From sequence record MN850637.1: a stretch of 64,000 bases of DNA. One strand, 5' to 3'. The stretch's first letter is position 1, and each line of letters opens with the position of its first letter. This document shows positions 4,286 through 60,366 of the stretch, in pieces. A model generated the notes under the pieces. That model saw nothing but the letters and a program-made list of their open reading frames with translations. It made no database searches and had not been told where the DNA came from. Position numbers and translations under genes: made by a program. This stretch comes from Escherichia phage warpig.

Positions 4286-4308
4286 GGGGCTTGAAAGCCC
4301 CATTTTGA
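4286..4308 (+). terminator. hairpin GGGGCT/AGCCCC with short T-run
   Basis: inverted repeat between the two NAD-pathway genes; weak T tract, so may be attenuating only. Confidence 0.35.
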
Positions 4309-6103: not shown

Positions 6104-6118
6104 AAGTATATGATAAGA

Positions 6119-6143
6119 GGCTCCTACGGGAGCCTTTTTAATT
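6119..6143 (+). terminator. Rho-independent terminator
   Basis: GGCTCC-TACG-GGAGCC followed by TTTTTAATTT. Confidence 0.6.
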
Positions 6144-6156
6144 TCTGGAGAAGACT

Positions 6157-6492: not shown

Positions 6493-6650
6493 AAATTTTA
6501 CTGTCACTTGGTAGTGTAGCAGTTTTTGTTTACCTTCTTTGCAAGTACTATGCAGAGTACAAGAAGTGTGATTACTGCAACGGGGAAGGGTACACAAGAG
6601 CAGGTTGTTGCCCTATTTGTGGTGGTTCTGGTAAAATGTTTAATAAGTAA
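6474..6650 (+). CDS. small membrane-anchored zinc-ribbon peptide (58 aa, two CxxCxGxG motifs)
   Basis: Not in the >=60 aa ORF track; ATG at 6474 preceded by GAGGTGA; translation MQAYWIEILLSLGSVAVFVYLLCKYYAEYKKCDYCNGEGYTRAGCCPICGGSGKMFNK. Confidence 0.4.
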   Translation: MQAYWIEILLSLGSVAVFVYLLCKYYAEYKKCDYCNGEGYTRAGCCPICGGSGKMFNK

Positions 6651-6678
6651 TTTAACAGTAAACTAAGAGGAAAGTATT

Positions 6679-9045: not shown

Positions 9046-9050
9046 AGTGT

Positions 9051-9124
9051 TTGACAAGGGGCTTCGAAGCCCCTTAGAATAGCCTTACAAAATGATTTAT
9101 TAACTAACAAGAGAGAGTAATAAG
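9051..9124 (+). promoter_or_regulatory. promoter-like element TTGACA-N18-TAGAAT with perfect 16-bp palindrome GGGGCTTCGAAGCCCC in the spacer
   Basis: Read directly; same palindrome-in-spacer layout as the class-1 cassettes at 15-18.5 kb. Confidence 0.4.
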
Positions 9125-10234
9125 ATGACTACTAAAACTAAAGCACAGATTGACGCAGAAATTTACGAACTGGTTAAAGAAGGTAAGCTGACTAAAACAG
9201 CTATTGCACAGAAGTTCAATACTTCAACCCGTTCAGTTGGTCGTGCTGTAGAGCGTCATGAAGCAACCTTAAAAGGTAAGAAAAAGGTAGCTTCTAAACC
9301 AGCTACGAAGACTTTGAAGCAAGTTGCTAAATCAGTTAAAAAGAAAGCTGACAAACCAGTTGAAAAGGTTGTTAAAGAGCCTGTACAGAAAGCTCCGGTA
9401 AATAAACTGCATGAAGCTATGCAGAATGGCAACCAGATTGAGTACATGATTACTGGCGACTCTGTTATCATGACTTTCGGTGCAGATTCTGAAATCGTTG
9501 AATCTACCCATCCGAACTACAAAGAAATCGTGATGGCTGTTGTATCCGGTGAGTATAAGAAAGCTTTCGAACTGATGAACATTCGTAAGTCTATCGAAAA
9601 CTTCACTCAGGGTACTATCACCATCAAAGGTGACAAGTTATTCTACGGTGCTGTTGAGATGCGTTCTACTCTGGTTGACCGTATTCTTCACATGATGAAG
9701 ACTGGAGATAAGGGTTTTGAACGCCTTGTGATGTTCTTCGAAAAACTGATGGAAAACCCATCTAAAGACTCTGTAGAACAACTTTGGGGATTCGTATCTC
9801 ACCTTGATGTTGAAATTGATGAAGAAGGCTACATCATTGGTTGGAAGAAAGTCTCTACTCATGAAGGCAAGCTGGTTGACTCCCACACCTACAGAGTACC
9901 TAATGATTTGGGTAACATTGTAGAAATGCCACGTTGGATGGTTGATAATAACCGTAACGTGACTTGCTCTCAGGGTCTTCACGTTGGTGCTTGGGATTAT
10001 GTTCGTTGCTTCTCAGGTGATACAATCCTGAAGGTTCGTGTCCATCCACGAGATGTTGTATCTGTTCCAACTGATTACAACGATATGAAGATGCGTTCGT
10101 CTCGTTATGAAGTTGCAGCAATCGTTGATAATCAACGTAAAGTGCTGAAAGAATGGGATGGCAAGACTGAAGCTTTGCATGTCATCGTTGGCACTGCTGG
10201 TGAACTAATCTCCCAACGTAAACGTGAAATCTAA
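9125..10234 (+). CDS. rIIB: rIIB-like protein
   Basis: 369 aa; central/C-terminal blocks (LFYGAVEMRSTLVDRIL, KVRVHPRDVVSVPTDYNDMKMR) match my recollection of T4 rIIB. Confidence 0.7.
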   Translation: MTTKTKAQIDAEIYELVKEGKLTKTAIAQKFNTSTRSVGRAVERHEATLKGKKKVASKPATKTLKQVAKSVKKKADKPVEKVVKEPVQKAPVNKLHEAMQNGNQIEYMITGDSVIMTFGADSEIVESTHPNYKEIVMAVVSGEYKKAFELMNIRKSIENFTQGTITIKGDKLFYGAVEMRSTLVDRILHMMKTGDKGFERLVMFFEKLMENPSKDSVEQLWGFVSHLDVEIDEEGYIIGWKKVSTHEGKLVDSHTYRVPNDLGNIVEMPRWMVDNNRNVTCSQGLHVGAWDYVRCFSGDTILKVRVHPRDVVSVPTDYNDMKMRSSRYEVAAIVDNQRKVLKEWDGKTEALHVIVGTAGELISQRKREI

Positions 10235-10250
10235 TAAGTAATTTCTTAAA

Positions 10251-10276
10251 AGGCTGCTTCGGCGGCCTTTTTTATT
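10251..10276 (+). terminator. Rho-independent terminator
   Basis: AGGCTGC-TTCG-GCGGCCT stem followed by TTTTTTATTT. Confidence 0.6.
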
Positions 10277-10334
10277 TGTATTTTGTGCAGAGTGCTGTAT
10301 AATTGTTGTCACGATAAACTAAACAGGAGAACCA

Positions 10335-10883
10335 ATGAAGAAATTGATTCTAGGTTTGTGCTTAATGTTTACAGCACACTTATCTTATGCAGTTGACTGC
10401 CCAGAGCTATCAATTAGCCAAAAAGTAAACATGTTAAAAGCTTACCAGTATGGTGAGAATAACATGGGTAAAGGTTGGGGTATCACTCTAGCTGCTATAG
10501 CCTTACAAGAGTCAGAGTTAGGTCTGAAGGTAGAGAATAAAAAGACACATGATTATGGTATCTTCCAGAATCACTTGAAGACTGTTGTAAAGCGTAACAA
10601 AATTAGTCCTAATGTGGCTAAAAAGAAACTCTTAAAAGACTTTGACTATGCTGCGAAGGAAACTCACAAAGAGCTTGAGTTTTGGACAAAGGTGCATGGT
10701 CAGCCAAAGTCAAAGAAGACTTTACAAAAAGTTTTAGCATCATATAATGCTGGGTATTCGTACAAAATCCCTAAAGCTAAGAAATATTCTCAAGATGTCT
10801 ATAACAACATGAAAGTCATTGCTCAATGTGAATTTGCAATAAACATTTCTAAGGTAAACCATGAAAAAATTAAAAAAGTCTGA
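10335..10883 (+). CDS. secreted lytic-transglycosylase (SLT)-domain protein
   Basis: 182 aa; signal peptide MKKLILGLCLMFTAHLSYA; SLT-like catalytic region AIALQESELG...DYGIFQ. Confidence 0.45.
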   Translation: MKKLILGLCLMFTAHLSYAVDCPELSISQKVNMLKAYQYGENNMGKGWGITLAAIALQESELGLKVENKKTHDYGIFQNHLKTVVKRNKISPNVAKKKLLKDFDYAAKETHKELEFWTKVHGQPKSKKTLQKVLASYNAGYSYKIPKAKKYSQDVYNNMKVIAQCEFAINISKVNHEKIKKV

Positions 10884-11556
10884 TGAAGTACTGTGTCATG
10901 CTTACGACTTACATCCTCATGAGTTAGGTCTTGATTCCTGTGTATGGACTCCAGAACAGTGTAGGGATTTTGAAGACACTGCAAGAGAAGTTGTATGTTC
11001 ACTCGAAGAGTTCCACACATCAGAGCCAATTGTGAATGTTGTAGATAAAGAGACTGGACAAACTATAGGTGTAAGTCGTGATAGCTTAGTCATAGTCAAT
11101 AAAGACCTTGTAGAAAAAGGTAACCTCATCTTAGCAGATATTGATGGTGTTCTTACAAATTTTAATCACGAAGATTGCTCAACGGAATTGACTGATGGGT
11201 CATTCTCACAGTACACTAATCTTCTTGACTCTGTAAGAGCAAAACCAACGTATGTCTTTAGTATTATTGATGCAATTGCTAATCATGCTGCCGTTGGACT
11301 CTTGACAGCGAGAGGCGAATCTCAGAGAATACCTACTGAGATGTTTTTAAGGCATAACACAGAGCATGATTATATGCTTTTTATGCGTGGTTTTGGAACT
11401 AACTCTATAAGTGCAGAAAGTTTGAAAGTGAGAATGATTCAGTCTTGCATTCTGCCTTACTTTAATATAGTATGTTTTATAGAAGATACAGAGAAGAACG
11501 TGCAGAAGGTGAACAGAATCCTTCCACACATCAAAACCATGTTAGTTAAACATTGA
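10861..11556 (+). CDS. HAD-superfamily hydrolase-like protein (possible nucleotidase/phosphatase)
   Basis: 231 aa; DxDG[TV]L-type motif ILADIDGVLTNF. Confidence 0.4.
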   Translation: MKKLKKSDEVLCHAYDLHPHELGLDSCVWTPEQCRDFEDTAREVVCSLEEFHTSEPIVNVVDKETGQTIGVSRDSLVIVNKDLVEKGNLILADIDGVLTNFNHEDCSTELTDGSFSQYTNLLDSVRAKPTYVFSIIDAIANHAAVGLLTARGESQRIPTEMFLRHNTEHDYMLFMRGFGTNSISAESLKVRMIQSCILPYFNIVCFIEDTEKNVQKVNRILPHIKTMLVKH

Positions 11557-11566
11557 GAGAAAACTT

Positions 11567-12031
11567 ATGAACAATATCATTACGGTAGCACTGGACGTTA
11601 CGGCAAACAAATCTGAAGTAGTTCGTAACATTATCAAGAGCAACTTTGAGGGTAAAATCTTCCGTGCTGTCAATGTAAAAGCAGACGGCAACATCCGAGA
11701 GTATCGTGCTCTTTTGAATGTTAAGAAACACGTCAAAGGTTCTGGTTCAACGACTGCACACAAAGAAAACCTGATGACTATCTATGATATGGGTATGGCT
11801 TCAGAGTTAGGTGCTGAAGGTATCGTTAAAGAAGGTGCTCCGTATCGCTCTTTCAATCTGGAAACTGCTCTCATGCTTTCCTTTACAAGTGGTTCTAAAA
11901 CAACTACTTATCTCTTTACTGATGCTGCAACGGTATCTGCTATCAAGGATAACGCTATCAAAGCTGGGGTAGCTGCTGCTGCAAAAGCTTCTTCGATGGC
12001 TGCAAATGTCCTTGCTAAAGTCCTCGGTTAA
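11567..12031 (+). CDS. hypothetical protein
   Basis: 154 aa; followed by a strong terminator. Confidence 0.5.
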   Translation: MNNIITVALDVTANKSEVVRNIIKSNFEGKIFRAVNVKADGNIREYRALLNVKKHVKGSGSTTAHKENLMTIYDMGMASELGAEGIVKEGAPYRSFNLETALMLSFTSGSKTTTYLFTDAATVSAIKDNAIKAGVAAAAKASSMAANVLAKVLG

Positions 12032-12043
12032 GGTTAAGATACA

Positions 12044-12066
12044 GGCTCCTTCGGGAGCCTTTTTCA
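12044..12066 (+). terminator. Rho-independent terminator
   Basis: GGCTCC-TTCG-GGAGCC followed by TTTTTCATTT. Confidence 0.6.
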
Positions 12067-12083
12067 TTTCAGGAGATTGTTAA

Positions 12084-12431
12084 ATGACATTTAAAGAGTT
12101 CTGTCAAGCTACTTTTATAATTGTTTTCTTAGTTGGGGCAGGTGTCTGGGGAGGATACTCTTACAGAGACTATCAAGTTGCTGAAGCTGAGCTAAACAAT
12201 GAGAAACTAATAAGTGTTGCTAAAGATGCTTATCAGGAAGGTTTAGCCACACTCAGCACCAATTACAAAAATGATTTGAAAGATGTGCTTGCTAAGAATA
12301 AGCATACAAAAGAGGTACTAACATATGAAAAAACTAAGCCAGAGTTTTATAATGTTTGTGTTACTGATAACTATGTCAGGGTGTTCAACGAACAAAGTGA
12401 ACAGTACATTCAAAAACTCCCAAGTAAGTGA
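12084..12431 (+). CDS. membrane protein with N-terminal TM helix and coiled-coil (i-spanin-like candidate)
   Basis: 115 aa; TM FIIVFLVGAGVWGGYSY; a lipoprotein gene overlaps its 3' end in another frame. Confidence 0.35.
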   Translation: MTFKEFCQATFIIVFLVGAGVWGGYSYRDYQVAEAELNNEKLISVAKDAYQEGLATLSTNYKNDLKDVLAKNKHTKEVLTYEKTKPEFYNVCVTDNYVRVFNEQSEQYIQKLPSK

Positions 12432-12594
12432 GAGTGACAAGTACACTCAAGAGGAGTCAAGATTCACTGTCAAAGGCAATACCGGTAGTGATGTGGCAGC
12501 AGCCCTTGAGTTTTATCGTGATGGTTTTTACCAGTGCACAATCAAAGCTAATAACCTTATTGATATGATTTTATTAGGAAACAAACAGCAATGA
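12325..12594 (+). CDS. lipoprotein (o-spanin-like or superinfection-exclusion candidate)
   Basis: 89 aa; lipobox ITMSGC after hydrophobic signal; overlaps the previous gene by about 107 nt out of frame. Confidence 0.4.
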   Translation: MKKLSQSFIMFVLLITMSGCSTNKVNSTFKNSQVSESDKYTQEESRFTVKGNTGSDVAAALEFYRDGFYQCTIKANNLIDMILLGNKQQ

Positions 12595-12860
12595 CAGAGA
12601 ATGAAGATACTTTCTATGTAGAAGGGTACTTACTGCTACCACGACCAAAAGAAACTTATATGCGGGTTGATTTTTCACCAACCATTATGGATAACGTGAT
12701 GTGCCATATCTTTATGCAAGGTGTCACAGCACAACTTAAGCATGTTGGTAAAGAGTGCAAAATAAAGGTTGACACTCATCCAGAAATCAAAGAGAATCAC
12801 TACACATGGTTCTTACCAGACTCTAAAGAAATCTTAGCAGTTCTTAAAACGAGGAAGTAA
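12591..12860 (+). CDS. hypothetical protein
   Basis: ORF track; translational coupling. Confidence 0.4.
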   Translation: MTENEDTFYVEGYLLLPRPKETYMRVDFSPTIMDNVMCHIFMQGVTAQLKHVGKECKIKVDTHPEIKENHYTWFLPDSKEILAVLKTRK

Positions 12861-12862
12861 CT

Positions 12863-13189
12863 ATGCAGATTAATGGAAGAGACTTTGTAGCCGTTTACTA
12901 CGAGAAAGATAAAGAAGTTGGAGTAGCACAAGTATCTTATGGTAATGGTAAGTGGCTATATGGAACAATCGCAGTAGTCGGAACAAGAAGTGATACAAAA
13001 ACTTTTAAAGATTGTGTTGACCTTCTTGAAGAATCCATCCACAATCATTGGTGTCTGATATGGATGACTGACAACGAAGTGATAGAACGCTTCAAAAAGA
13101 TTGACATCAACATTGATAGCATTGAGCATGTTGATTTGTATGAGCTAACTGAGAAGGTAAACTATGAAAGTAATACTAGCCAGAGATAA
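12863..13189 (+). CDS. hypothetical protein
   Basis: ORF track. Confidence 0.4.
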   Translation: MQINGRDFVAVYYEKDKEVGVAQVSYGNGKWLYGTIAVVGTRSDTKTFKDCVDLLEESIHNHWCLIWMTDNEVIERFKKIDINIDSIEHVDLYELTEKVNYESNTSQR

Positions 13190-13391
13190 AAAGACACGGA
13201 AACTTATCAGGTCAGCAGTGTTCATTGGACGAAATGAAGTCATACCATTTACAGCAAATGATGTGATAGCTTACCGGAAGAACTTAGTATTCGCTGACTG
13301 TTTACGTGGATTCATCTCTGAACCATTGGAAGACTTTAAAAGTCGTTGTGGTAAAGGCATCATCATTCAAGAGGCAATTATTCATGGCTGA
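13164..13391 (+). CDS. hypothetical protein
   Basis: ORF track. Confidence 0.35.
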   Translation: MKVILARDKKTRKLIRSAVFIGRNEVIPFTANDVIAYRKNLVFADCLRGFISEPLEDFKSRCGKGIIIQEAIIHG

Positions 13392-13584
13392 CTTCTGCAA
13401 AGATTGTGCTATCGAAATGTTCGGACGTGATACAGGTGACTTAAAAGGTCTTATCACTGAAGATGACTTTAAGGCTGGCTATGCAATGCCAGTAATCTGT
13501 GAAGGTTGTGGATGTATCTGGGTAGACCACGAAGGACAGCGTGTAAAACCTTCAGAAGATAAAGAATCTTGGGAGAGATGCTAA
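13384..13584 (+). CDS. small Cys-rich (zinc-ribbon-like) protein
   Basis: ATG at 13384 within track ORF 13306..13584; MADFCKDC...CEGCGC. Confidence 0.35.
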   Translation: MADFCKDCAIEMFGRDTGDLKGLITEDDFKAGYAMPVICEGCGCIWVDHEGQRVKPSEDKESWERC

Positions 13585-14370
13585 ATGGGTATTGTAAAAA
13601 TCATCAATGGGGATATCTTCTCCGCATTTGATAAAGGTAAGTTTGATATTATTGGTCACGGTTGCAACTGTATGAACTTAATGGGTGCAGGTATCGCTGA
13701 CAAGATTTCTAAACTTTACCCAAAAGCATATGAGACCGATACAGAAGTTTATTTGTATGCAGGTGGCATAGGCCACAAACCCTGTGAAAATTTACTAGGT
13801 AATTTCTCTGTAGCACGTTTAAAACAAGGCCGTATAGCTAACCTTTACACTCAGCTTAAGACTGGTAAAGATGCCCGATACAGTGCTTTAGAGTCATCTT
13901 TGAAACAGCTTAACAGATACTGTGAAGTCAATCAGTTGAAGAAAGTCGGGTTACCTATGATTGGTGCAGGTATCGGTGGGCTAGACGCTCAAGCCGTCAC
14001 AGTTATCATTAATCAGGTGATGAAGAGTGTAGATGTGTATCTGTATGTCTATGAAGGAGAGATGTACCACAAGTTACGCTCAGGTTGGAAGAACTACTGT
14101 GAACCAGAATACTTTGCAGGTGTAGTAACGTTCACAGACAATACAGTTACCCTCTTCAGACGAAGAAAAGGTAAGATACATCAAAGTAACCCTCCGGTTG
14201 AAAAGATGTCTCTAAGTAACGCTCTAGTTACCCACCTGTCGAAGAGCAATCACAGGATTGCAGTAACATTTGGTAGTGATGCAGACACTTATATCTATGC
14301 AAGAACTGATGAGGGTATCGAGACAGTTTTCTCTTCGCCAGAAGTTACCTTCTTAGACGCAAAGAACTAA
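13585..14370 (+). CDS. macro-domain protein (ADP-ribose-binding/hydrolase fold) with extra C-terminal domain
   Basis: 261 aa; macro motifs GDIFSAFDKGKFDIIGHGCNCMNLMGAGIA and LPMIGAGIGGL. Confidence 0.65.
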   Translation: MGIVKIINGDIFSAFDKGKFDIIGHGCNCMNLMGAGIADKISKLYPKAYETDTEVYLYAGGIGHKPCENLLGNFSVARLKQGRIANLYTQLKTGKDARYSALESSLKQLNRYCEVNQLKKVGLPMIGAGIGGLDAQAVTVIINQVMKSVDVYLYVYEGEMYHKLRSGWKNYCEPEYFAGVVTFTDNTVTLFRRRKGKIHQSNPPVEKMSLSNALVTHLSKSNHRIAVTFGSDADTYIYARTDEGIETVFSSPEVTFLDAKN

Positions 14371-14440
14371 GAAACTCTGTAGAGTATTCACAATAAACTA
14401 AGCCTTTCTTATCTGGTAAATTTTTCAGGTAAGGAGGGCT

Positions 14441-14640
14441 TTTTCATTTCAGAATTGTGCAGGTATATTTCTATAGAGAAATCTGTAGAGGAAATTTTGA
14501 ACTCCAAAGAGAAAATTCATTTTCAAACTGTGCAGGTAATCTCCAAAGGGTTTTTTCATTTTCAAAACGTGCAGAGAAAAATCAGGTCGGGCAAGAAAAA
14601 TCATTTTAGAATTGTGCAGGTAGGTGGGTGCAGGTGGGGA
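14441..14640 (+). repeat. 4-5 degenerate direct repeats of TTTTCAtTTCAgAAtTGTGCAGGTA-like units
   Basis: Read directly: copies near 14441, 14514, 14553, 14596 and a GTGCAGGT(G)G tail. Confidence 0.5.
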
Positions 14641-14800
14641 TGTCGCCATTTCTCACAAGGCTACCACATCTGGAAATAAAAGTCAACAGAAAAATTTGTA
14701 GCGGATTGAAAAATAATTCTTGATTGTAGTTCTGTTTTGTGGTATTCGCGCGCACCCGTTTCATTACAATTTTTGCAAAAAAATATTTTTAAAATTCCTA

Positions 14801-14879
14801 TTGACTCTTTGAGTATGGTTATCTAATATTTGCATCAGACGGGCAAGCAAGCCCACTTCCTAAACTGGAGAATCTAAAA
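14801..14879 (+). promoter_or_regulatory. sigma70-like promoter TTGACT-N17-TAATAT plus conserved leader CTAAACTGGAGAATCTAAAAATG
   Basis: -35 at 14801-14806, -10 at 14824-14829; leader shared with downstream small genes. Confidence 0.5.
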
Positions 14880-15086
14880 ATGCTTTACAGTCGTGAATTG
14901 ATGGTTACAACTAACGTTAACACAAAGGTAAAACGTTTTTACATGCAAATTTGTGGCGTATGGTCTAGAATATCAGAAGCTGACTATTGCAACTATGTAG
15001 AAACGGCTATAAACTCTAATTGCTACCTTACAAGAAATACAAGAAAGTACATAAGACAGACAGCAATTTACTACTACGATAAATAA
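14880..15086 (+). CDS. small early-region protein (hypothetical)
   Basis: 68 aa; ATG preceded by conserved leader with GGAG. Confidence 0.45.
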   Translation: MLYSRELMVTTNVNTKVKRFYMQICGVWSRISEADYCNYVETAINSNCYLTRNTRKYIRQTAIYYYDK

Positions 15087-15091
15087 AGTAC

Positions 15092-15173
15092 TTTACAAGG
15101 GGCTTATAGTTCGATAGAGTAAGCCCCAGATAAAGAGCTTTGCTAACTAACCTTAAACTAGGAGAATCTGAAA
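15092..15173 (+). promoter_or_regulatory. class-1 cassette: TTTACA-N17-TAGAGT with GGGGCTTA/TAAGCCCC palindrome in spacer, then conserved leader
   Basis: palindrome 15099-15127; leader ends CTAGGAGAATCTGAAAATG. Confidence 0.4.
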
Positions 15174-15554
15174 ATGGCATATCGTGCACCTAAATTCATC
15201 AACAAAGACAACTTTCGCAACGCACTGGAGAAGTCACTTGATGAAAAATTTAACGGTAAATTGATTATTGTTCACGCATTCAATTTTAAGTATGATATTA
15301 ATGGGAATAAAATCAACCATTACACGGCAACCATGATAGATGGTACACTTTCAAGTGAAAAAGCCGTACTGAATGCACTTGCTGGACGCGGTAAAAACCT
15401 GATAAAATGTGATAAGCGACGTTATCAGGGTGGCGCATATGGTTACGATGATGCTGTTTACCATCTTGAAAACATGGGCTATCAAGTAGAAAAAGCTGGA
15501 GTATCACAAATTATCGGGAGTGATGGTTATGTGACAATTTTCAAAATTAACTAA
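15174..15554 (+). CDS. small early-region protein (hypothetical)
   Basis: 126 aa ORF behind class-1 cassette. Confidence 0.5.
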   Translation: MAYRAPKFINKDNFRNALEKSLDEKFNGKLIIVHAFNFKYDINGNKINHYTATMIDGTLSSEKAVLNALAGRGKNLIKCDKRRYQGGAYGYDDAVYHLENMGYQVEKAGVSQIIGSDGYVTIFKIN

Positions 15555-15562
15555 TAAAGTAC

Positions 15563-15643
15563 TTTACAAGGGGCTTATAGTTCGATAGAGTAAGCCCCAG
15601 ATAAAGAGCTTTACCACTAAATCCTAAATTGGAGAACTTAAAA
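15563..15643 (+). promoter_or_regulatory. class-1 cassette (near-identical copy)
   Basis: same palindrome (15570-15598) and leader. Confidence 0.4.
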
Positions 15644-15901
15644 ATGGCTATTATCAAAAACGTTGTAATTACTGCAAAGACTCGTGATGACGCTCGCGTT
15701 ATGGCTAAAAAGTTATGCGGAAAAGTGGTTGACAACGGAAAACAAACTGCTGTAAGGTGGGGCGTGAAAGCTGATAAGCAACTAACCTTAAAACATAATT
15801 CAAACAACCTTTTTAAAGGTGTAAAATCACTCGGTAAAGTGAACGTTTTTACCAAAAAAGGCTATAAAATGCACTTATCACTAACTGGCAATTTAATCTG
15901 A
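15644..15901 (+). CDS. small early-region protein (hypothetical, basic)
   Basis: ATG at 15644 after GGAGAACTTAAAA; track ORF 15629 begins at an in-frame TTG. Confidence 0.45.
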   Translation: MAIIKNVVITAKTRDDARVMAKKLCGKVVDNGKQTAVRWGVKADKQLTLKHNSNNLFKGVKSLGKVNVFTKKGYKMHLSLTGNLI

Positions 15902-15909
15902 TAAAGTAC

Positions 15910-15996
15910 TTTACAAGGGGCTTAAAAGTTGATATCTTAAGCCCCAGATAAAGAGCTTTACCACTAAATCAAGTCCTTAAACTAGGAGATTCAAAA
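15910..15996 (+). promoter_or_regulatory. class-1 cassette (variant palindrome GGGGCTTAA/TTAAGCCCC)
   Basis: palindrome 15917-15945; conserved leader. Confidence 0.4.
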
Positions 15997-16509
15997 ATGA
16001 AAACTGTAGACGCTACCTTTGAAGTTGTAAAAGAAAAATTTTCCATCGTTTATGAGGCTGTTAATTGCTATGAAGCAAGTCATAATCTTGATAATTGGAA
16101 GTTTACAGATGACCATCAAGGCGGTGTGACTGTTAAAAATCCTAACTGTCAGCGTAATGATTTTAAATATGCAATCCCTTTACATTACAGCCTTAAGCAG
16201 CTTTCAAGTGACTATGCAAAACAAGGCCGTGAGAATCCATCGAAAGAGGCTTACACGAGCTTACAGAAAGAACTAGAAAGAGATTTAGAGGCTTCAGAGT
16301 ATAACCTTGCCGCGAAAGTTGTGGATGCAAACGGTAGCACGGTTTTAGAAAGTTTTTATCTTGGTTACGCTTTCGATTGGTGCTATCGTGACGGCGATGA
16401 TTTAGATGACAGGCTAAAAGAGGAAGTGAACAACGCAGACGCAGAATCTGAAGTATTAGAACGCTTGGAAGCATTAAAAGATTCAGTGATGAATATCTTT
16501 AAGGACTAA
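15997..16509 (+). CDS. small acidic early-region protein (hypothetical)
   Basis: 170 aa; conserved leader upstream. Confidence 0.5.
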   Translation: MKTVDATFEVVKEKFSIVYEAVNCYEASHNLDNWKFTDDHQGGVTVKNPNCQRNDFKYAIPLHYSLKQLSSDYAKQGRENPSKEAYTSLQKELERDLEASEYNLAAKVVDANGSTVLESFYLGYAFDWCYRDGDDLDDRLKEEVNNADAESEVLERLEALKDSVMNIFKD

Positions 16510-16518
16510 ATAGACCTC

Positions 16519-16600
16519 TTTACACGGGGCTAACAAGCTGATATGATAGCCCCAGATAAAGAGATTTATCAAATTAACCCTTAAACTAGGAGATTCAAAA
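16519..16600 (+). promoter_or_regulatory. class-1 cassette (variant palindrome GGGGCTA/TAGCCCC)
   Basis: palindrome 16526-16553; conserved leader. Confidence 0.4.
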
Positions 16601-16897
16601 ATGAAATTATCAAATAAAGTCCGTGAAAATTTAAGCAAGTTACTCAACAAAATTGATTTTATCGAGACATCAAGGAATAGTCATGATGTTATGGAATGGT
16701 TGCACGGCAAAATAAAAGGCCGTCGCGTAGTGATTTGCTTATGGAATAGTTGCAGGGAGTATAAAAAACCTGTATTGCAAGTAAATATTTATGACGATAC
16801 TTTTAAAAGTCCAGTAAAATCTAAAAGTGACTTACTAGATTCTTATGAGATAACTGTAAATGGCAAAGTATCACGTAAAGAGGAAACACCATGTTAA
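16601..16897 (+). CDS. small early-region protein (hypothetical)
   Basis: 98 aa. Confidence 0.45.
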   Translation: MKLSNKVRENLSKLLNKIDFIETSRNSHDVMEWLHGKIKGRRVVICLWNSCREYKKPVLQVNIYDDTFKSPVKSKSDLLDSYEITVNGKVSRKEETPC

Positions 16898-17223
16898 TGA
16901 CTGGCATCACTGCAATCATTGCCATTTTCGCGCTATATAAGGCATATAAAGCCTATAATCTAGCAAATAAGGCAATCACACAGCAGGTTAGCAATAACCT
17001 TGTAGAAAGCTTTCTAGGGCGCCTCAGTGATGAGCAAATAAAGCGGCTAGAGATGAGCTTCAGATATAAAGCGAAAACCTATCAGATAAGTGACATCTTC
17101 AAAGATGATTTTCAGTTAGTCGATGATTATAATTCACTGATAAATGCTTTAAATATCAGTGATTTGAAAGACTATTACGCTGTAATTGTTCAAGAATTGA
17201 GCAAACGAAAACAAAGTGTTTGA
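16891..17223 (+). CDS. small membrane protein (hypothetical)
   Basis: 110 aa; N-terminal TM ITAIIAIFALY; overlaps upstream stop. Confidence 0.4.
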   Translation: MLMTGITAIIAIFALYKAYKAYNLANKAITQQVSNNLVESFLGRLSDEQIKRLEMSFRYKAKTYQISDIFKDDFQLVDDYNSLINALNISDLKDYYAVIVQELSKRKQSV

Positions 17224-17312
17224 CACTGGTTTTCAGATAGATTAAATTACACATCAACGGGGCGGGAATGACCTTCCCCACTAAATAAAGTCCTAAACTG
17301 GAGATTCTGAAA
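17220..17312 (+). promoter_or_regulatory. class-2 cassette: TTGACA-N17-TAAATT, 5'-UTR hairpin GGGGCGGGAATGACCTTCCCC, conserved leader
   Basis: -35 17220-17225, -10 17243-17248. Confidence 0.5.
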
Positions 17313-17585
17313 ATGTATACTACTAACAACGGTCGTACTCTAAATGTAACTTTGCGCCACTATGTGAACGGTGTAATGCACTTCGAGGATTTACAAGCCG
17401 AACAACATATCTTAGATTGGCAAGTTGCAGGACTCCAAAAAACTGCTACAGGATACGGGAAAAAGATTCCAACCAGTTGGAAAGTATACTACGAAGGCCG
17501 TTTGCGCAGAATTTATCAGGATGTGCAAAGCAATAGCGCATCGAGTTACATCATAGTAAAAGGTAAAAAGCTGAATTTAGTATAA
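17313..17585 (+). CDS. small early-region protein (hypothetical)
   Basis: 90 aa. Confidence 0.45.
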   Translation: MYTTNNGRTLNVTLRHYVNGVMHFEDLQAEQHILDWQVAGLQKTATGYGKKIPTSWKVYYEGRLRRIYQDVQSNSASSYIIVKGKKLNLV

Positions 17586-17588
17586 AGT

Positions 17589-17671
17589 ACTTTACAAGGG
17601 GCTTATAGTTCGATAAAGTAAGCCCCAGATAAAGAGCTTTACCACTAAATCCTAAATTGGAGAACTTAAAA
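17589..17671 (+). promoter_or_regulatory. class-1 cassette
   Basis: palindrome 17596-17624; conserved leader. Confidence 0.4.
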
Positions 17672-18076
17672 ATGGCTATTAATAATCGCGAGTTATCAAT
17701 CTTAAAAGCACGTTTGACCGTTAACCGGATTAATGTTATTACGTCATCAGCACCGGACGAAACATTGCACAACATTATTGGGAAGATTCAAAGCGTTATC
17801 TTAGACGTTGAAAACGTAAAAAACTCATTGGCTGACGTTGCAGCAGGTATCACGCTAGACGGTGCACAATATGAAATGACCGACATGTTAGGCAAATCTA
17901 AGGTAATGAATAAAGAGCTTGATTTGAAAATGTTTCGATTTGCTGTTAAAGTGTGGCTATCTGTCGAGTATGACGCTAATTTTGCAATCGCTGACTTTTT
18001 CGCAACATGGTTGCAACGTAACTTAACAAATCACGATTTTCGTAATATCTGTGATGCAATTTACGCAGAACTATAA
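17672..18076 (+). CDS. small early-region protein (hypothetical)
   Basis: ATG at 17672 (MAINNRELS...); track ORF starts at upstream TTG. Confidence 0.45.
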   Translation: MAINNRELSILKARLTVNRINVITSSAPDETLHNIIGKIQSVILDVENVKNSLADVAAGITLDGAQYEMTDMLGKSKVMNKELDLKMFRFAVKVWLSVEYDANFAIADFFATWLQRNLTNHDFRNICDAIYAEL

Positions 18077-18085
18077 AAATTTTTG

Positions 18086-18177
18086 TTGACACTGGTTTTC
18101 AGATAGATTAAATTACACATCAACGGGGCGGGAATGACCTTCCCCACTAAATAAAGTCCTAAACTGGAGATTCAAAA
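18086..18177 (+). promoter_or_regulatory. class-2 cassette (identical promoter and hairpin to 17220)
   Basis: -35 18086-18091, -10 18109-18114. Confidence 0.5.
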
Positions 18178-18381
18178 ATGGCTATTATCAACGGTTTAAC
18201 CATTGAAACTACACACATCAAAGATATTAAAGTTGGTGATGTAGTCCTTTCCCACGGCGTAGAGAAAACTGTTACTGCAAAGGATATTAAAGAGGATTCT
18301 TTCATGGGTAGGACTCTCTTCGGTGATTCTTATTGCTTAGGTTATCTTGCAGTTTTAAAAGTTGTCAAAAATAACCGATAA
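18178..18381 (+). CDS. small early-region protein (hypothetical)
   Basis: 67 aa. Confidence 0.4.
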   Translation: MAIINGLTIETTHIKDIKVGDVVLSHGVEKTVTAKDIKEDSFMGRTLFGDSYCLGYLAVLKVVKNNR

Positions 18382-18386
18382 AGTAC

Positions 18387-18467
18387 TTTACAAGGGGCTT
18401 AAAAGTTGATATCTTAAGCCCCAGATAAAGAGCTTTACCACTAAATCCTAAACTGGAGATTCAAAAA
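18387..18467 (+). promoter_or_regulatory. class-1 cassette
   Basis: palindrome 18394-18422; conserved leader. Confidence 0.4.
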
Positions 18468-19010
18468 ATGAAATGCTTTCACGGTACTACTCAAGAAAAC
18501 TTTATCAACCTGATTAATAATGGTGATAAGCCATCAGGTGCATGGAATTGTTCGGATATGGATGGCAATTTTTACGTATACCCAGAAAATAAAATCTATG
18601 GTGACGATGAGGAAGAGATAGTATCCGAAGGTATTCAACAGGCGTTAGGAAATGCCACTATCACGGCAGCTTTCCAGATGAAAACCCAAAACATTGTTAT
18701 CTTGGAACTTGATATTCCAGAGGACGAATTAAATGATGATTATTCTTGTGATAATATGTCTGGCGTAGCAAGTTTTACAGAATACTTCGATTTAAATTGG
18801 ATTAAAAAGGTTTACGTAACCGAGTTTAATGCGATGTTTTCGCCTTTTTGTCTTCCTTCATTGGATAACCCAAATTTAAACTATCTTGATGAGTCTCTGG
18901 AGCTTCTTGCTAAAAGCGTTCAACAGTCGGACAGTATTCAGGTTTTTTGTGACATCATGGATACACTGGCAGGAAACATCGCAGAAGAGGATTTAAAGAG
19001 CTTTTTTTAA
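18468..19010 (+). CDS. small acidic early-region protein (hypothetical)
   Basis: 180 aa; followed by hairpin AGCCCCTTGTAGGGGCT. Confidence 0.5.
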   Translation: MKCFHGTTQENFINLINNGDKPSGAWNCSDMDGNFYVYPENKIYGDDEEEIVSEGIQQALGNATITAAFQMKTQNIVILELDIPEDELNDDYSCDNMSGVASFTEYFDLNWIKKVYVTEFNAMFSPFCLPSLDNPNLNYLDESLELLAKSVQQSDSIQVFCDIMDTLAGNIAEEDLKSFF

Positions 19011-19076
19011 AAACCTATGCAATCACCTTATAAACACTAATCAGCCCCTTGTAGGGGCTTTTAGGGGGCTTAAATC

Positions 19077-19310
19077 ATGCTTACAACCGTTTACCTCATC
19101 CTTTCCATCTGTAATGGTCATTCATGCGATTTTAAAGGGCTTGAAGAGTTTACAGGAAGTAAAGAAAATGCTATTCAAGTTTGCCAGATAGCACGGCAAG
19201 ACTATCCCGCAAGTGATGATATACAATGCTACTTTAAGACAGAAGATAAAGACGGCATCTATTTTGACAGCGTTGACGGTCAATATGAAATTATCATTGA
19301 AAAAGACTAG
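19077..19310 (+). CDS. small early-region protein (hypothetical)
   Basis: 77 aa. Confidence 0.4.
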   Translation: MLTTVYLILSICNGHSCDFKGLEEFTGSKENAIQVCQIARQDYPASDDIQCYFKTEDKDGIYFDSVDGQYEIIIEKD

Positions 19311-19400
19311 ACAAGCCTGATAAAAGTCTGTAAATTGTCAATCAACGGGGAGGGAATGACCTTCCCCACTAAATGAAGTCCTAAACTGGAGATTCTAAAA
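19308..19400 (+). promoter_or_regulatory. class-2 cassette (TAGACA-N17-TAAATT, UTR hairpin, conserved leader)
   Basis: -10 19331-19336; hairpin GGGGAGGGAATGACCTTCCCC. Confidence 0.45.
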
Positions 19401-19742
19401 ATGGCTTATGTAACCGTAATTACCGATAAAGCTGGCGCATCTTGGTCAACTCAGGTTAGTGATAAGATGTCGCCTATGCAGTGCCTAAAATACTTTGAAC
19501 AGTGGAACAAAGGCGAGGACACAAGCCCCTTTCACGTAATGCAGATTATTCATGTAGACAATGAAGGGAAGAAAACAACTCTGAATAGTGAGTACTACGC
19601 AAGCCGTTTTGAAACGAGAAGTAAAGCAATGAAGCTCTTACGTGAGGCCGGATATGGTCACATTGCCGCGATAATCTGGGATGACCTTCTAAAAAGTCAA
19701 CGTATCAGCTATGTAAAGCCTGAAAAAATATTTATCAGTTAA
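19401..19742 (+). CDS. small early-region protein (hypothetical)
   Basis: 113 aa. Confidence 0.45.
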   Translation: MAYVTVITDKAGASWSTQVSDKMSPMQCLKYFEQWNKGEDTSPFHVMQIIHVDNEGKKTTLNSEYYASRFETRSKAMKLLREAGYGHIAAIIWDDLLKSQRISYVKPEKIFIS

Positions 19743-19871
19743 TCAATAACTTACAAAAAACTTTTAAAAAAGTGTTGACAATACCCCTTGACATTGGTAA
19801 CTTTGTTCGAGGGGGTTTATCTAAAAGGGATTAACTTAAAAGATTCTTTATAGATAAACTTAAAAAATTGC

Positions 19872-19962
19872 TTGCAATCAGCTATCAAAACAAGTAAATT
19901 ACTAATCAACGGGAGGGATGACCTCCCCACTAAGTAAAGTCCTTAAACTAGGAGATTCAAAA
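19872..19962 (+). promoter_or_regulatory. class-2 cassette (TTGCAA-N17-TAAATT, UTR hairpin GGGAGGGATGACCTCCCC, leader)
   Basis: -35 19872-19877, -10 19895-19900; extra TTGACA boxes at 19775-19793. Confidence 0.45.
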
Positions 19963-20493
19963 ATGAACAAGTTCAAAGCCATCAATTACATCCGCTCAAA
20001 TAGTGTTATGTCAAAGCCTGTTAAAGACACCTATGAATTCCGTTGTAATGGTGTACACTTTGCAACCATCACCAAATCAGAAAACGGGGCTTATTACATT
20101 CATCGCCGTAATGTTGCAACCGTTGTAGTCTCTCATTTTATGCAAGCTGTAGCAGAGTTATTACCGCTATTCTTAGAGATTTACTTAGATGAGTGTAAAA
20201 ACGTTCACAACCACGTTAAAAACCTTTTAAACAGTTATAAAATGGCTTATGAACGTTCTATCAAGTCCTTAAACAAGTTTTACAACGCACCTGAAAATAC
20301 TGTGTCAATAGCCTATGCTGCAAATGGTGGGATGGTAAACTTATCCAATGTGGAAGAAATCGAACTGCATGACTTACGCCCTGAAGGTTATTCTAAAACC
20401 CTCGGTGAAGGTTTATCATTCAATATCAAGAACTTAGAAAAAACTTTAAAAGATATTGAAAAAGATATTGACGAGACAATCAAAAATCTGTAA
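19963..20493 (+). CDS. early-region protein (hypothetical)
   Basis: ATG at 19963 (MNKFKAINYIRS...); track ORF 19918 starts inside the leader hairpin. Confidence 0.45.
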   Translation: MNKFKAINYIRSNSVMSKPVKDTYEFRCNGVHFATITKSENGAYYIHRRNVATVVVSHFMQAVAELLPLFLEIYLDECKNVHNHVKNLLNSYKMAYERSIKSLNKFYNAPENTVSIAYAANGGMVNLSNVEEIELHDLRPEGYSKTLGEGLSFNIKNLEKTLKDIEKDIDETIKNL

Positions 20494-20558
20494 ATTACTA
20501 ATCAACGGGAGGGATGACCTCCCTACTAAATAAAGTCCTTAAACTAGGAGACTCTAAA
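20468..20558 (+). promoter_or_regulatory. class-2 cassette (TTGACG-N17-TAAATT overlapping upstream stop codon)
   Basis: -35 20468-20473, -10 20491-20496. Confidence 0.45.
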
Positions 20559-20807
20559 ATGGCAACTATCCGCGCAACTGTTAACGAATTTGGCTTCTAC
20601 TCTCTGGATGTTAAATTCGACCTTGTAGGTACTGATAACGCCTTTGAAATGGTGAAAGTTCTTATCAGTCAGACCATCAAAGACTATAATCCTTCAGATG
20701 AGTTCTGGAAAGAAACAAAACAGGAAGTTCTCAAAGAGGGCTATTCATATCACTATTGGGGTGAAAAAATCGTCTCCCTGTACTACGACAAAGAAGGCAC
20801 TAACTAA
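20559..20807 (+). CDS. small early-region protein (hypothetical)
   Basis: ATG at 20559 (MATIRATVNEFG...). Confidence 0.45.
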   Translation: MATIRATVNEFGFYSLDVKFDLVGTDNAFEMVKVLISQTIKDYNPSDEFWKETKQEVLKEGYSYHYWGEKIVSLYYDKEGTN

Positions 20808-20845
20808 TCGACGCAACGGGGCTAAATAGCCCCAGATACCTTTAC

Positions 20846-20873
20846 AGCCCCTTTCCCATAGGGGCTTTTTTAC
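20846..20873 (+). terminator. Rho-independent terminator closing the + strand early block
   Basis: AGCCCCT-TTCCCAT-AGGGGCT followed by TTTTTT. Confidence 0.6.
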
Positions 20874-21289
20874 GTCTTATCAAATCCCTTATACAACCCT
20901 TTCCCTTTCCTTTCCAGAATCTTATCAGACCTTAAAAAGCAATAACTCTATAGTCTACTCTATAGCCTTTTATCAAATCAACTTAAATATAAGCCCATAA
21001 CCCGAAAGGGAAGGGCAACCGTTTAAACGCTCTATAAAGCTCTATAACAGCCTTATCAACCTAACTTAAGGGATTGCATTAACTCACCCTAAAAAGCCCT
21101 TTATAAAGCTTCCCAGAGACTTAAAAGAATCTTATAAGGGTGTAAGCTTTATCATCTCGTTAGCTATCTTGTGAACTACTAAACAAGCCCCTTGATAGTA
21201 ACTGAAAAGTATGTTATAGGGGCTTTAAAGTTACTTTGAAGTAGCTTAAAAGTTACGTAAATGCTAGCCCCCTTAACAATTTCTTAACA

Positions 21290-22300
21290 AACCCTACATA
21301 GTTATGCTTTTAAGGTACTTGTTAGCAACTTGTTAGCACCTTGTTAAATCTCTGTTAAGACCACGTAAAAGCCTTGTAAGAGTCTTTGACATAGCCTTTA
21401 AAGCCCCTGTAAAGCCCTATAAAGAGCTATCTGTACAGTTGGGCTGTAGTTACTAGGAAGAGACTTAAAAGGGGCTATACAGAGCTATACAGAGCTTTTA
21501 AGAGGTATGTTTAAAGAATCACTAAGAAAGGAAAGGGAACGATAAGAAAAAGAGTAGTGACCATGTTAATAGCTTGTTAAAAAGATTAAACACTTGTTAG
21601 AAACTTGTTAATTATCTTAACAAAATAACTCTTAAAAATTAACTTGTTAGCTCTTGTTAGTCATCTGTTAAGATTCTGTAAAGCCTATTCAGCACTTGTT
21701 AATTGGTATTGTTACCAATCCCTAGAAAACTGTTACAGCCTTGTTAGTTCTGTTAAGAATCTGTTAAGACCTCTGAAGTGTTGTTAAGAAGATGTGAGAA
21801 CTGTTAAGAGATTGTTAAGGATATTTTAAAATTTTGCAAAGTACTTGTAAGGGAGCTGTTAAGGGCTACCAAGCAGATATACATCCTCTACAGATATTTT
21901 TGAGTTCCTTCAAAGACCCTAAAAAATGACTTGATAGTCCTATTTTATAAAAATTTTAAAAATCTGAATAATTACCTATACAGTCTTTTAAAAATACAGG
22001 TAGAAACAGGCTTATAAGATACCTTGTTAGTACCATGTTAGACCTTGTGAGATAAGGTCTGTAAAGATATTCCTGTTAAGTTTGTTAAAACAGTCTATAT
22101 AGAGGCTTAGTAATACCTAGTGAACACCTATAGAGAGTCACATAGTTAACCTAGAGATTAAGAGGTGTATAGGAGCTTCTAAGAAGGTGTAGAGAGATGG
22201 TTAAGGTGATTGTATAGACTGTTAAGAAGGCTTGTTAGAGGACTTGTTAGAAGGGTTATACAGAGGGGCTATTAAGACCACTAGATAGTTACTAAGATAC
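21290..22300. repeat. iteron field: about 30 copies of the octamer YTGTTAR(G) plus TATAGAG/TATACAG repeats in an ORF-free region
   Basis: Read directly; examples CTTGTTAG at 21309/21321, CTGTTAAG at 21694/21770/21782, TTGTTAAG at 21802/21832; no ORF >=60 aa on either strand in 20808-22458. Confidence 0.6.
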
Positions 22301-22420
22301 TATATAGTACTATATAACTATATAGAGAGTAAGATTAAGAAGGTTGTTAAGAAGAATAGATATTTTGTTCACATATGATGGTGACCCAGAGGTTGGGACA
22401 ACCGATAAAATTTTATAAAA

Positions 22421-22452
22421 ATTAAAAAGCCCCCGATTAAGGAGGCTCTTAA
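22421..22452 (-). terminator. Rho-independent terminator for the - strand block
   Basis: On the - strand: AGCCTCC-TTAAT-CGGGGGCT then T-rich run. Confidence 0.5.
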
Positions 22453-57284: not shown

Positions 57285-57294
57285 TTTCTTTACA

Positions 57295-57315
57295 GGGGCT
57301 GTATAGCCCCTTTTA
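57295..57315 (+). terminator. hairpin GGGGCT-GTAT-AGCCCC followed by TTTT
   Basis: read directly. Confidence 0.45.
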
Positions 57316-57330
57316 AGAGGAAAATTTATA

Positions 57331-60336: not shown

Positions 60337-60362
60337 GGCTCCTTTTTACGGGAGCCTTTTTT
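60337..60362. terminator. bidirectional Rho-independent terminator between convergent genes
   Basis: GGCTCC..GGAGCC hairpin flanked by A-run upstream and T-run downstream. Confidence 0.6.
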
Positions 60363-60366
60363 GTTT

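Follow-up and report, generated by a model that had tools for sequence, protein, structure and literature searches.

Intergenic cassettes that combine a promoter-like motif with a GC-rich hairpin in the small-gene array of Escherichia phage warpig and other Ounavirinae

Escherichia phage warpig (MN850637.1) is a Felixounavirus, and the window analysed here is a 64,000-nucleotide (nt) stretch of its DNA in which six intergenic elements, each combining a promoter-like motif with a GC-rich inverted repeat, lie between positions 15092 and 18467. The 6-kb stretch around the elements is ~95% identical to Escherichia phages garuso and JohannRWettstein and matches 255 phage records, nearly all of them Felix O1-like (Felixounavirus). 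Felix O1-like phages are widely used in typing, biocontrol and therapy. The elements sit in a plus-strand array of small genes downstream of two long open reading frames (ORFs), 6679-9045 and 9125-10234, corresponding in place to rIIA and rIIB of related records, respectively. The array genes are annotated as hypothetical proteins in relatives; none of ten array proteins has a Pfam match, and the PHROG families of all ten are of unknown function.

All six sites, here called type A, read TTTACA-N-GGGGCT(T)A, a loop of 11-14 nt, T(A)AGCCCC and AGATAAAGAG, and each of them is on the gene strand, flanked by a stop codon on one side and by the Shine-Dalgarno (SD) sequence and ATG of a following gene on the other. 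Each is the core of a ~90-100-nt intergenic direct repeat (family D1) that reaches this ATG, and the resulting cassette, which always sits 5' of a gene of unknown function, has the order stop codon, ATAAAGTAC, TTTACA, hairpin with the -10 hexamer, AGATAAAGAGCTTTACCACTAAATCCTAAACTGGAGA, A-rich stretch and ATG. Of the two arms, the 5' one (GGGGCTTA, GGGGCTTAA or GGGGCTA) occupies the spacer and the 3' one the stretch from the -10 hexamer to +1, with the hexamer itself inside the loop. An initial annotation of the window had placed a palindrome in the -35/-10 spacer of seven elements; this holds for the one at 9051 only, as just the 5' arm lies there in the other six. A second cassette family (type B) is present in the same array in five copies.

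The cassette was found by blastn in 288 phage records, with several copies per record, from the genera Felixounavirus, Suspvirus (SUSP1), Mooglevirus (Michonne, Sf16) and Kolesnikvirus (Erwinia phages phiEa21-4 and ST-3); all records listed by this search with retrieved taxonomy are Ounavirinae. A pattern scan of IMG/VR gave 68 further loci. The collected set comprises 180 instances, 125 of them with distinct cores, and the alignment and covariance model were made from 75 distinct copies from four Ounavirinae genera, whereas hairpin pairs were counted in 59 distinct hairpins, Erwinia phage variants included. Mooglevirus copies with U.G pairs and Erwinia GGTG...CACC variants were found by direct reading of intergenic regions together with the covariance model.

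With this model only six strong sites appear in the window, scoring 77-91 bits and all on the gene strand, and 9037-9094 scores 26.6 bits. The pattern TTTACANGGGGCT-N16-AGCCCC, with up to three mismatches, has 7 matches vs 0.06 expected from shuffles, namely the six clustered sites and the reverse reading of 16526, so the repeat itself is real; GGGGCTT-N(0-12)-AAGCCCC, the short form without mismatches, is present at 4286 and 9058, vs 0 expected. Six of the positions first listed (9051, 15092, 15563, 15910, 16519, 18387) are correct, and the element listed at 17589 really starts at 17591. An Rfam scan of 8800-21500 with E up to 1 returned weak chance matches, none at the elements, and a literature search found no earlier description of these elements as promoters or hairpins.

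Cassette 1 (15083..15173, plus strand, as are all six) has its -35 TTTACA at 15092-15097, a hairpin at 15099-15127 with 8-bp arms GGGGCTTA/TAAGCCCC and a 13-nt loop, and its -10 TAGAGT at 15115-15120; the predicted start at C15127/A15128 is followed by a leader with GGAG and the ATG at 15174 (83.5 bits). In cassette 2 (15554..15643, 88.8 bits) the -35 lies at 15563-15568, the hairpin at 15570-15598, the -10 TAGAGT at 15586-15591 and the ATG at 15644. Cassette 3 (15901..15996, 90.7 bits) has its -35 at 15910-15915, a hairpin with 9-bp arms and an 11-nt loop at 15917-15945, an extended -10 TGaTATCTT (hexamer 15933-15938) and its ATG at 15997. Cassette 4 (16510..16600, 76.8 bits) is a variant with the -35 at 16519-16524, a hairpin at 16526-16553, an extended -10 TGaTATGAT (hexamer 16542-16547) and the ATG at 16601; here the arms are not GGGGCTT(A), as had been claimed for every element, but GGGGCTA/TAGCCCC (7 bp, 14-nt loop), and the lower-stem partners are CTCTTTA/TAAAGAG. 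Cassette 5 (17582..17671, 86.7 bits) has its -35 at 17591-17596, hairpin at 17598-17626, -10 TAAAGT at 17614-17619 and ATG at 17672, and cassette 6 (18378..18467, 89.6 bits) its -35 at 18387-18392, hairpin with 9-bp arms at 18394-18422, -10 TATCTT at 18410-18415 and ATG at 18468.

The four -10-like hexamers (TAGAGT, TATCTT, TATGAT, TAAAGT) were correctly recognised at the outset and lie exactly 17 nt after TTTACA. Across the 75 aligned copies TTTACA is invariant (75/75) and the 17-nt spacer is kept; the -10 hexamer has T in 67, A in 70 and T in 71 copies at positions 1, 2 and 6, respectively, its positions 3-5 vary freely, and TG is found at -15/-14 in 36/75. Judged from the sequences, this pattern of -10 conservation is that expected of a working sigma-70 -10 element, and the description of the elements as promoter-like stands in all four genera. 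Transcription is predicted to begin at the final C of the 3' arm or at the A next to it; in the six cassettes this A lies at 15128, 15599, 15946, 16554, 17627 and 18423. Because the start is at the 3' end of the hairpin, transcripts begun at the element would not contain the hairpin.

Type-A stems are 7-9 bp long and the hairpin alone folds at -12 to -14 kcal/mol (z ~-3.3 to -4.2). In the 75-sequence alignment 91.1% of cells are paired vs 30-55% with slid partners, and the covariation score was reached by 0/500 shuffles. Among the 59 distinct hairpins, pair 3 is G-C in 50 and U-A in 9, pair 5 is C-G in 21, U.G in 34 and U-A in 3, pair 7 is U-A in 45 and A-U in 13, and pair 8 is A-U in 42 and U-A in 10, with mismatches almost absent from the first seven pairs. 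The phiEa21-4 arms GGTGTTTATA...TATAAGCACC and GGTGTTTAGA...TCTAAGCACC differ in sequence and keep both the pairing and the AGATAAAGAGCTTT flank, and a 12-bp version in this phage, GGGGTTATGGTT-ATGA-GATTATAACCCC, has three G.U pairs. On this comparative evidence the stem is under selection for pairing, through compensatory and G.U changes, and the proposal that selection acts on the palindrome is upheld in that form. The idea that GC-rich blocks merely confine promoter melting leaves the kept complementarity at mirrored GC drops (GGTG/CACC) unexplained.

Wobble pairing is one-sided, with 116 G.U cells vs 17 A.C cells, and the mean hairpin energy is -12.2 kcal/mol for the sense strand vs -9.9 kcal/mol for the antisense strand, the sense strand being the more stable in 46/59. 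Sense stability is ~-11.4 to -13 kcal/mol in every sequence class, whereas antisense stability falls to -7.4 kcal/mol in some. Since the G.U pairs are one-sided and the sense strand is the more stable, folding of the sense strand appears to be favoured, which points to a structure in that strand, most simply in the RNA of transcripts reading through from the upstream gene. Among the three options offered by the initial annotation (operator, RNA hairpin on read-through transcripts, phage-polymerase promoter), the RNA hairpin is thus the best fit. Cruciform extrusion in duplex DNA would be unlikely given loops of 11-14 nt and A.C mismatches on the opposite strand.

Single-sequence folds lengthen the structure, as ATAAAGTACTTTA pairs with TAAAGAGCTTTAC below a 3x3 internal loop (CAA/AGA), so that the extended fold has ~19-21 bp; whole cassette segments reach -24 to -25 kcal/mol (z -3.3 to -4.7). 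One lower-stem pair (11-63) covaries, being G-C in 52 and U-A in 13 copies; its partners are ~52 nt from each other and do not belong to the two halves of one local 12-mer palindrome. Apart from complementarity to the -35 region, nothing about a promoter accounts for the invariance of TAAAG at +4 to +8. The lower stem is missing in the Erwinia GGGGTTAT variant, and the sense-minus-antisense energy for the whole 60 nt is small (-1.3 kcal/mol). The folds make an extended lower stem possible.

Changes that mirror each other in the two arms would likewise agree with a symmetric binding site under co-evolution, in which the arms GGGGCTTA/TAAGCCCC are half-sites for a dimeric phage or host repressor that shuts the early promoters together. 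The arms bracket the -10 hexamer at ~21 bp centre to centre, on the same helix face and with a spacing that is fixed within type A, and they are far better conserved than a spacer or discriminator requires; a protein bound to them, on both sides of the -10 hexamer and over the start region, would obstruct RNA polymerase. The sequence TAAAGTACTTTA over the -35, a perfect 12-bp palindrome, and TAAAGAGCTTTA at ~+4 to +15 could be further sites, and a Cro/C1-type regulator is annotated in the relative Michonne. However, half-site spacing varies, since the same arms have 4-nt loops at four other sites (GGGGCT/AGCCCC at 4286, 9058, 20818 and 57295). The half-sites also differ at position 5 in 34/59 hairpins (T vs C), including most non-Felixounavirus copies (GGGGT vs GGGGC as DNA), the difference nearly always being the one that yields a G.U in the sense strand. 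The arms vary within a single Erwinia phage genome (GGGG..., GGTG..., GGGGTTAT...), so one protein would have to read several sites, and the lower-stem covariation joins the left 5' half to the right 3' half and not the halves of each 12-mer. We regard an operator, with a putative binding protein of its own, as unlikely.

The cassettes are also the places where gene content changes. With the window region 13500-21500 aligned by blastn to all relatives, 116/149 internal segment ends (78%; 48/70 distinct coordinates) fall inside intergenic cassettes, which make up 21.6% of the region (binomial p ~5e-17, uncorrected for relatedness), and recombination is the presumed cause of this concentration. 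In several indels precisely one or two genes are missing and a single shared cassette remains: 15176-15903 is absent from FO1a and L074, the gene at 15644-15901 from relatives L046 and L014, and the gene at 14880-15086, via the repeated leader, from AYO145A and others. Window cassettes 2 and 5 share 99% identity over 100 nt, and pair 5 is uniform within a genome (C-G in 6/6 window copies, U.G in 10/10 Michonne and 7/7 SUSP1 copies); such homogeneity suggests ongoing exchange between cassettes.

In Michonne (37480-37653, minus strand) a cassette ATG is directly followed by a second complete cassette (ATGCTTTACATGGGG...), and in the window the ORF at 14880 starts ATGCTTTACAG, its first codons mimicking a -35. 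The Michonne double cassette looks like the scar of deleting a 14880-type ORF through -35-like microhomology.

Promoter early stem-loops (PeSLs) are known in the T4-like phages phi1/RB49, PST and nt-1 (Arbiol et al., 2010, PMC2839356; Comeau et al., 2014, PMC4122927). They consist of a stop codon, an AT-rich stretch, sigma-70 -35/-10 boxes, a stem-loop, an SD and an ATG, and the stem-loop, which has G-T pairs and is often GGGG...CCCC, lies mostly between the boxes or overlaps the -10, and can also stand just after it (PMC2839356). PeSLs sit 5' of ORFans in hyperplastic regions, fall into five placement subclasses and mediate indels, and both papers claim them for T4-like phages only (PMC2839356; PMC4122927). 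The Ounavirinae elements share with them the form of a ~100-nt repeated intergenic cassette with the same order of parts, a correctly spaced sigma-70-like -35/-10 (TTTACA-17-TAnnnT at all six sites) and a stable GC-rich stem-loop within or beside the promoter. The cassettes likewise cluster in variable regions before small genes of unknown function, with gene content that varies between relatives and indel breakpoints of close relatives falling in them, and occur in several placement classes per genome, here three (9051, type A and type B). They differ in belonging to Ounavirinae, the likeness being one of analogy with no sequence relationship detected by cassette blastn (RB49/phi1 were not compared directly), in having no U-tract, which makes terminator activity doubtful, and in pairing that may reach round the -35 and as far as base 15 of the transcript. 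For PeSLs, activity as a promoter, as a terminator and in forming mini-circles has been measured; for the Ounavirinae cassettes these activities are putative.

Such cassettes are a class known from T4-like phages, and the Ounavirinae copies had appeared only as direct repeats without an explanation. According to the Felix O1 genome paper, 57-bp direct repeats lie between genes 15/16 and 19/20 and 39-bp ones between 18/19 and 20/21 (Whichard et al., 2010, PMC3185647), and these are the same sequences, CTTTACATGGGGCTTAAAAGTCTGTAAAGTAAGCCCCAGATAAAGAGCTTTACCACT (type A, 57-bp) and TTGACACTGGTTTTTAGATAGATTAAATTACACATCAAC (type B promoter, 39-bp). They were given no function, promoter, hairpin or recombination role and are not in the promoter and terminator lists of that paper (PMC3185647). 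The wV8 genome paper does not mention promoters or repeats, the UAB_Phi87 paper merely counts predicted promoters, and the UFV13 paper cites PeSLs only for a T4-like phage. In Felix O1, reverse transcription PCR (RT-PCR) placed the peak of ORFs 16, 20, 21 and 22 at 5 min post infection and that of ORFs 17, 19 and 23 at 25 min; ORFs 16 and 20, both peaking at 5 min, directly follow the two 57-bp repeats (PMC3185647). This timing lends slight backing to the reading of the elements as early promoters.

We consider that the elements are probably portable intergenic expression cassettes analogous to the PeSLs of T4-like phages, uniting a promoter, a read-through hairpin and homology for gene shuffling. 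Host sigma-70 RNA polymerase would start at or next to the A of AGATAAAGAG, and the conserved geometry (TTTACA, 17-nt spacer, TAnnnT, often with TGn) suggests an early promoter. In transcripts that read through from the upstream gene, the GC-rich hairpin round the -10 would form in the sense RNA, so that the selected molecule would be RNA rather than the plus DNA strand. There the hairpin would mark a transcript boundary, with a processing site or a 3'-end-protecting structure more probable than a damping of read-through. Each small gene would then act as its own unit, and the cassettes would offer recurrent homology through which phages lose, gain or exchange single genes. The same array uses two sister architectures, with the hairpin in the spacer (9051) or just after +1 (type B). 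The whole cassette, the type-B family, the breakpoints for gene gain and loss and the PeSL precedent all go beyond the initial annotation.

Several points weigh against this explanation. Sequence alone does not separate the plus DNA strand from sense RNA, and the upper stem of the window copies is perfectly palindromic and equally stable on both strands (sense -12.9 vs antisense -13.2 kcal/mol), so the strand assignment comes from relatives. The covariation counts overstate the number of independent events because copies are related by duplication and gene conversion. RNAalifold recovers a 6-bp GC stem only, with no lower stem, and a direct repeat would mimic lower-stem pairing because TAAAG/CTTTA is self-complementary. 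Termination of the PeSL kind is not predicted here because the hairpin has no U-tract. RT-PCR resolves the Felix O1 time course only coarsely, and it puts the peak at 25 min for ORF 17, downstream of a type-A element in FO1a; a literature search found no mapped transcription start, RNA 3' end or processing site for Ounavirinae or Felix O1.

If the stem-loop were an attenuator or terminator only, it would stop or damp upstream transcription while each gene is driven by its own promoter. The stem-loop of PeSL211/210 reduced lacZ expression to about the same extent as the rrnB T1 terminator did (PMC2839356), the hairpin here is stable and always follows a stop codon, and the same arms with a T-tract form terminator-like sites at 4286 and 57295. 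In the type-A copies, however, a U-tract occurs in 0/75 aligned sequences and in none of the further Erwinia-phage variants. The 3' flank, always AGATAAAGAG at the window sites and reading AGAUAAAG or GUCGAAAC, has at most one U in its first six bases, the loops are 11-14 nt long, and a terminator scan calls none of the sites. An intrinsic (Rho-independent) terminator is rejected on these grounds, and the first remark that the elements are not obvious terminators was sound. The phage moreover has canonical terminators with long T-tracts at the ends of gene blocks (14400, 20846, 12043), and the hairpin at 20818, with a true terminator 12 nt later, would be redundant if it terminated by itself. 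Termination as the only role is therefore improbable; the lack of a U-tract in copies from four genera, the canonical terminators at block ends and the position of the 20818 hairpin are also why a 3'-end-protecting or processing role for the cassette hairpin is ranked above termination.

The concentration of breakpoints could instead reflect a DNA-level recombination site, comparable to integron attC sites or PeSL mini-circles, in which the plus-strand hairpin in single-stranded DNA (ssDNA) is targeted by a nuclease or recombinase that mobilises single-gene cassettes and the overlap with a promoter is secondary. Strand-specific pairing with G.T-type mismatches would be tolerated in ssDNA too, and Arbiol et al. 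speculated that GGGG...CCCC stems are protein targets and detected mini-circles (PMC2839356). Against this, ~90 nt of near-identical sequence suffices for general homologous recombination, the junctions spread over the whole cassette, including the SD leader, and do not meet at one hairpin point, and no recombinase is linked to the array by Pfam or PHROG, which leaves such a site very doubtful. A specific form, in which the hairpin is an attC-like folded recognition site and single-gene cassettes are mobile across Ounavirinae by excision as circles and re-insertion at any cassette, we regard as quite unlikely; it would amount to a phage-borne, integron-like gene-cassette system carrying its own promoter. 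In a milder form, the hairpin may be a site for RNase III or RNase E so positioned that processed read-through mRNA and primary transcripts have a common 5' end.

The early promoters of phage N4 have no -35/-10 and consist of a hairpin with a 5-7 bp stem and a 3-nt loop that is recognised as extruded DNA by the phage virion RNA polymerase. The warpig elements share with them a conserved hairpin-forming inverted repeat at a promoter-like site upstream of early genes, but a promoter of this type for a phage-encoded or virion polymerase is scarcely credible, and the corresponding option of the initial annotation is rejected, given that full host-type sigma-70 geometry is kept, that the loops are 11-14 nt and that neither a phage RNA polymerase nor polymerase-modifying factors are reported in the Felix O1 genome paper (PMC3185647).

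For the favoured expression cassette, two further systems offer comparisons for the hairpin. It resembles the RNase III sites of phage T7 in lying between early genes served by host polymerase and in its upper stem, internal loop and lower stem (here an extended fold of ~19-21 bp interrupted by the 3x3 loop). RNase III cleavage of these early-region hairpins in T7 leaves the upstream mRNA with a stabilising hairpin at its 3' end. The T7 sites contain no promoter, however, and the lower stem has weak support here, with one covarying pair and no recovery by RNAalifold; RNase III sites have ~20 bp of mostly continuous double-stranded RNA, and the upper stem alone would be unfit for this enzyme because 7-9 bp is too short. 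Repetitive extragenic palindromic (REP) elements in malE-malF are intercistronic stabiliser hairpins, host repeats with no promoter inside. Like them, the hairpin is a stable GC-rich stem-loop without a U-tract after a stop codon and could stop 3'-to-5' exonucleases and so determine how stable the upstream segment is, but REP elements have no internal promoter, and the stabiliser role here is only putative.

If the favoured explanation is correct, promoter-plus-stem-loop cassettes are not peculiar to T4-like phages and would represent a recurring, probably convergent, way for virulent phages to express small early genes individually and swap them easily. Small early phage genes often serve host takeover or counter-defence. 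The cassettes would then provide a map of likely early promoters for Felix O1-like phages, account for repeats noted without comment in 2010, and mark predictable sites of gene-content difference between isolates that are possible natural landing pads for engineering. The sense-strand covariation makes them a testable RNA element in a phage group without transcript maps.

The remaining elements with related arms are all on the plus strand. The promoter-like site in the gap between the two long ORFs (9051..9080) reads TTGACA-A-GGGGCTTCGAAGCCCC-T-TAGAAT with an 18-nt spacer, its TTGACA lying at 9051-9056, the hairpin GGGGCTTCGAAGCCCC at 9058-9073, wholly in the spacer, and TAGAAT at 9075-9080. 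As it is the sole site with the whole hairpin in the spacer, it represents a different architecture; its stem is kept in FO1a, SUSP1 and Michonne, with differing loops (TTGA, GAAA).

The type-B cassette at 17220..17312 has TTGACA at 17220-17225, a 17-nt spacer and TAAATT at 17243-17248, then ACACATCAAC, with the hairpin GGGGCGGGAATGACCTTCCCC at 17259-17279. The type-B hairpin is predicted to lie at the 5' end of the transcript, just after +1, with the start expected ~5-6 nt before the hairpin, and types A and B have the leader ACTAAAT..CCTAAACTGGAGA and the SD in common. The cassette at 18086..18177 is 98% identical to 17220-17312 (hairpin 18125-18145), and the variant at 19308..19400 reads TAGACA-17-TAAATT (hairpin 19347-19367). 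Two further variants form family D6: 19872..19962 with TTGCAA-17-TAAATT and the hairpin GGGAGGGATGACCTCCCC at 19911-19928, and 20468..20558 with TTGACG-17-TAAATT, the upstream stop codon within the -10 and the hairpin at 20507-20524.

Several type-B cassettes of Michonne (minus strand, 31443-35833) have retained their hairpin and leader without an intergenic -35, and the upstream stop codon lies in the -10-like TAAAGT. In view of these cassettes the hairpin is the constant intercistronic feature, with the promoter sometimes missing or in coding sequence. A conserved non-coding block at 19743-19900 with two overlapping TTGACA motifs (GTGTTGACAATACCCCTTGACATTGG...GAGGGGGTTTATC) lies 5' of a type-B cassette and is nearly the same in Citrobacter phage Michonne, upstream of the coding sequence ending at 32563.

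A promoterless hairpin, GGGGCTAAATAGCCCC then AGATA (20818..20838), follows the last array gene and precedes the canonical terminator at 20846-20866. The short hairpin GGGGCTTGAAAGCCCC then ATTTTG, with the same arms (4286..4301), lies after the stop codon of ORF 3380-4276 and is terminator-like. TTTACA-GGGGCTGTATAGCCCC-TTTT (57289..57314, 18 bits) has the same arms and a T-tract, and the matching site is terminator t76 in the Felix O1 genome paper (PMC3185647). A near-identical canonical terminator (AGGCTCCTTCGGGAGCCTTTTT...) is dispersed in the genome at 6118-6151, 10251-10284, 12043-12076 and 60340-60373.

Upstream of the array, four spaced copies of ~TTCATTTTCAnAnnTGTGCAGGTA occur at 14443-14640, in a 500-nt non-coding stretch between the terminator at 14400-14441 and the promoter at 14801, and the repeat TTTTTCATTTTCAATTTGTGCATAGG is found in 4-5 copies at the equivalent place in Erwinia phage phiEa21-4 (intergenic stretch 6552-7012). 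Since it is also in phiEa21-4, the repeat is kept across genera, and the TTCATTTTCAnAnnTGTGCAGGTA copies could be iterons or regulator binding sites. Between the plus-strand early array and the minus-strand genes lies ~1.6 kb (20870-22450) with no ORF of at least 60 amino acids that is rich in the short repeats CTTGTTAG/A, CTATAAAG and TATACAGAGC; this region may serve in packaging or as a replication origin, or may be a genome end (direct terminal repeat). Repeated GGTTCGAATCC (T-arm-like) motifs at 31840-36424 suggest by themselves a putative tRNA gene cluster. Such clusters are known in Felix O1-like phages. At 57083-59592, repeated GGTGCTCACA..CACTC-type segments within long ORFs probably correspond to the repeats described in the tail-fibre genes 76/77 of Felix O1.

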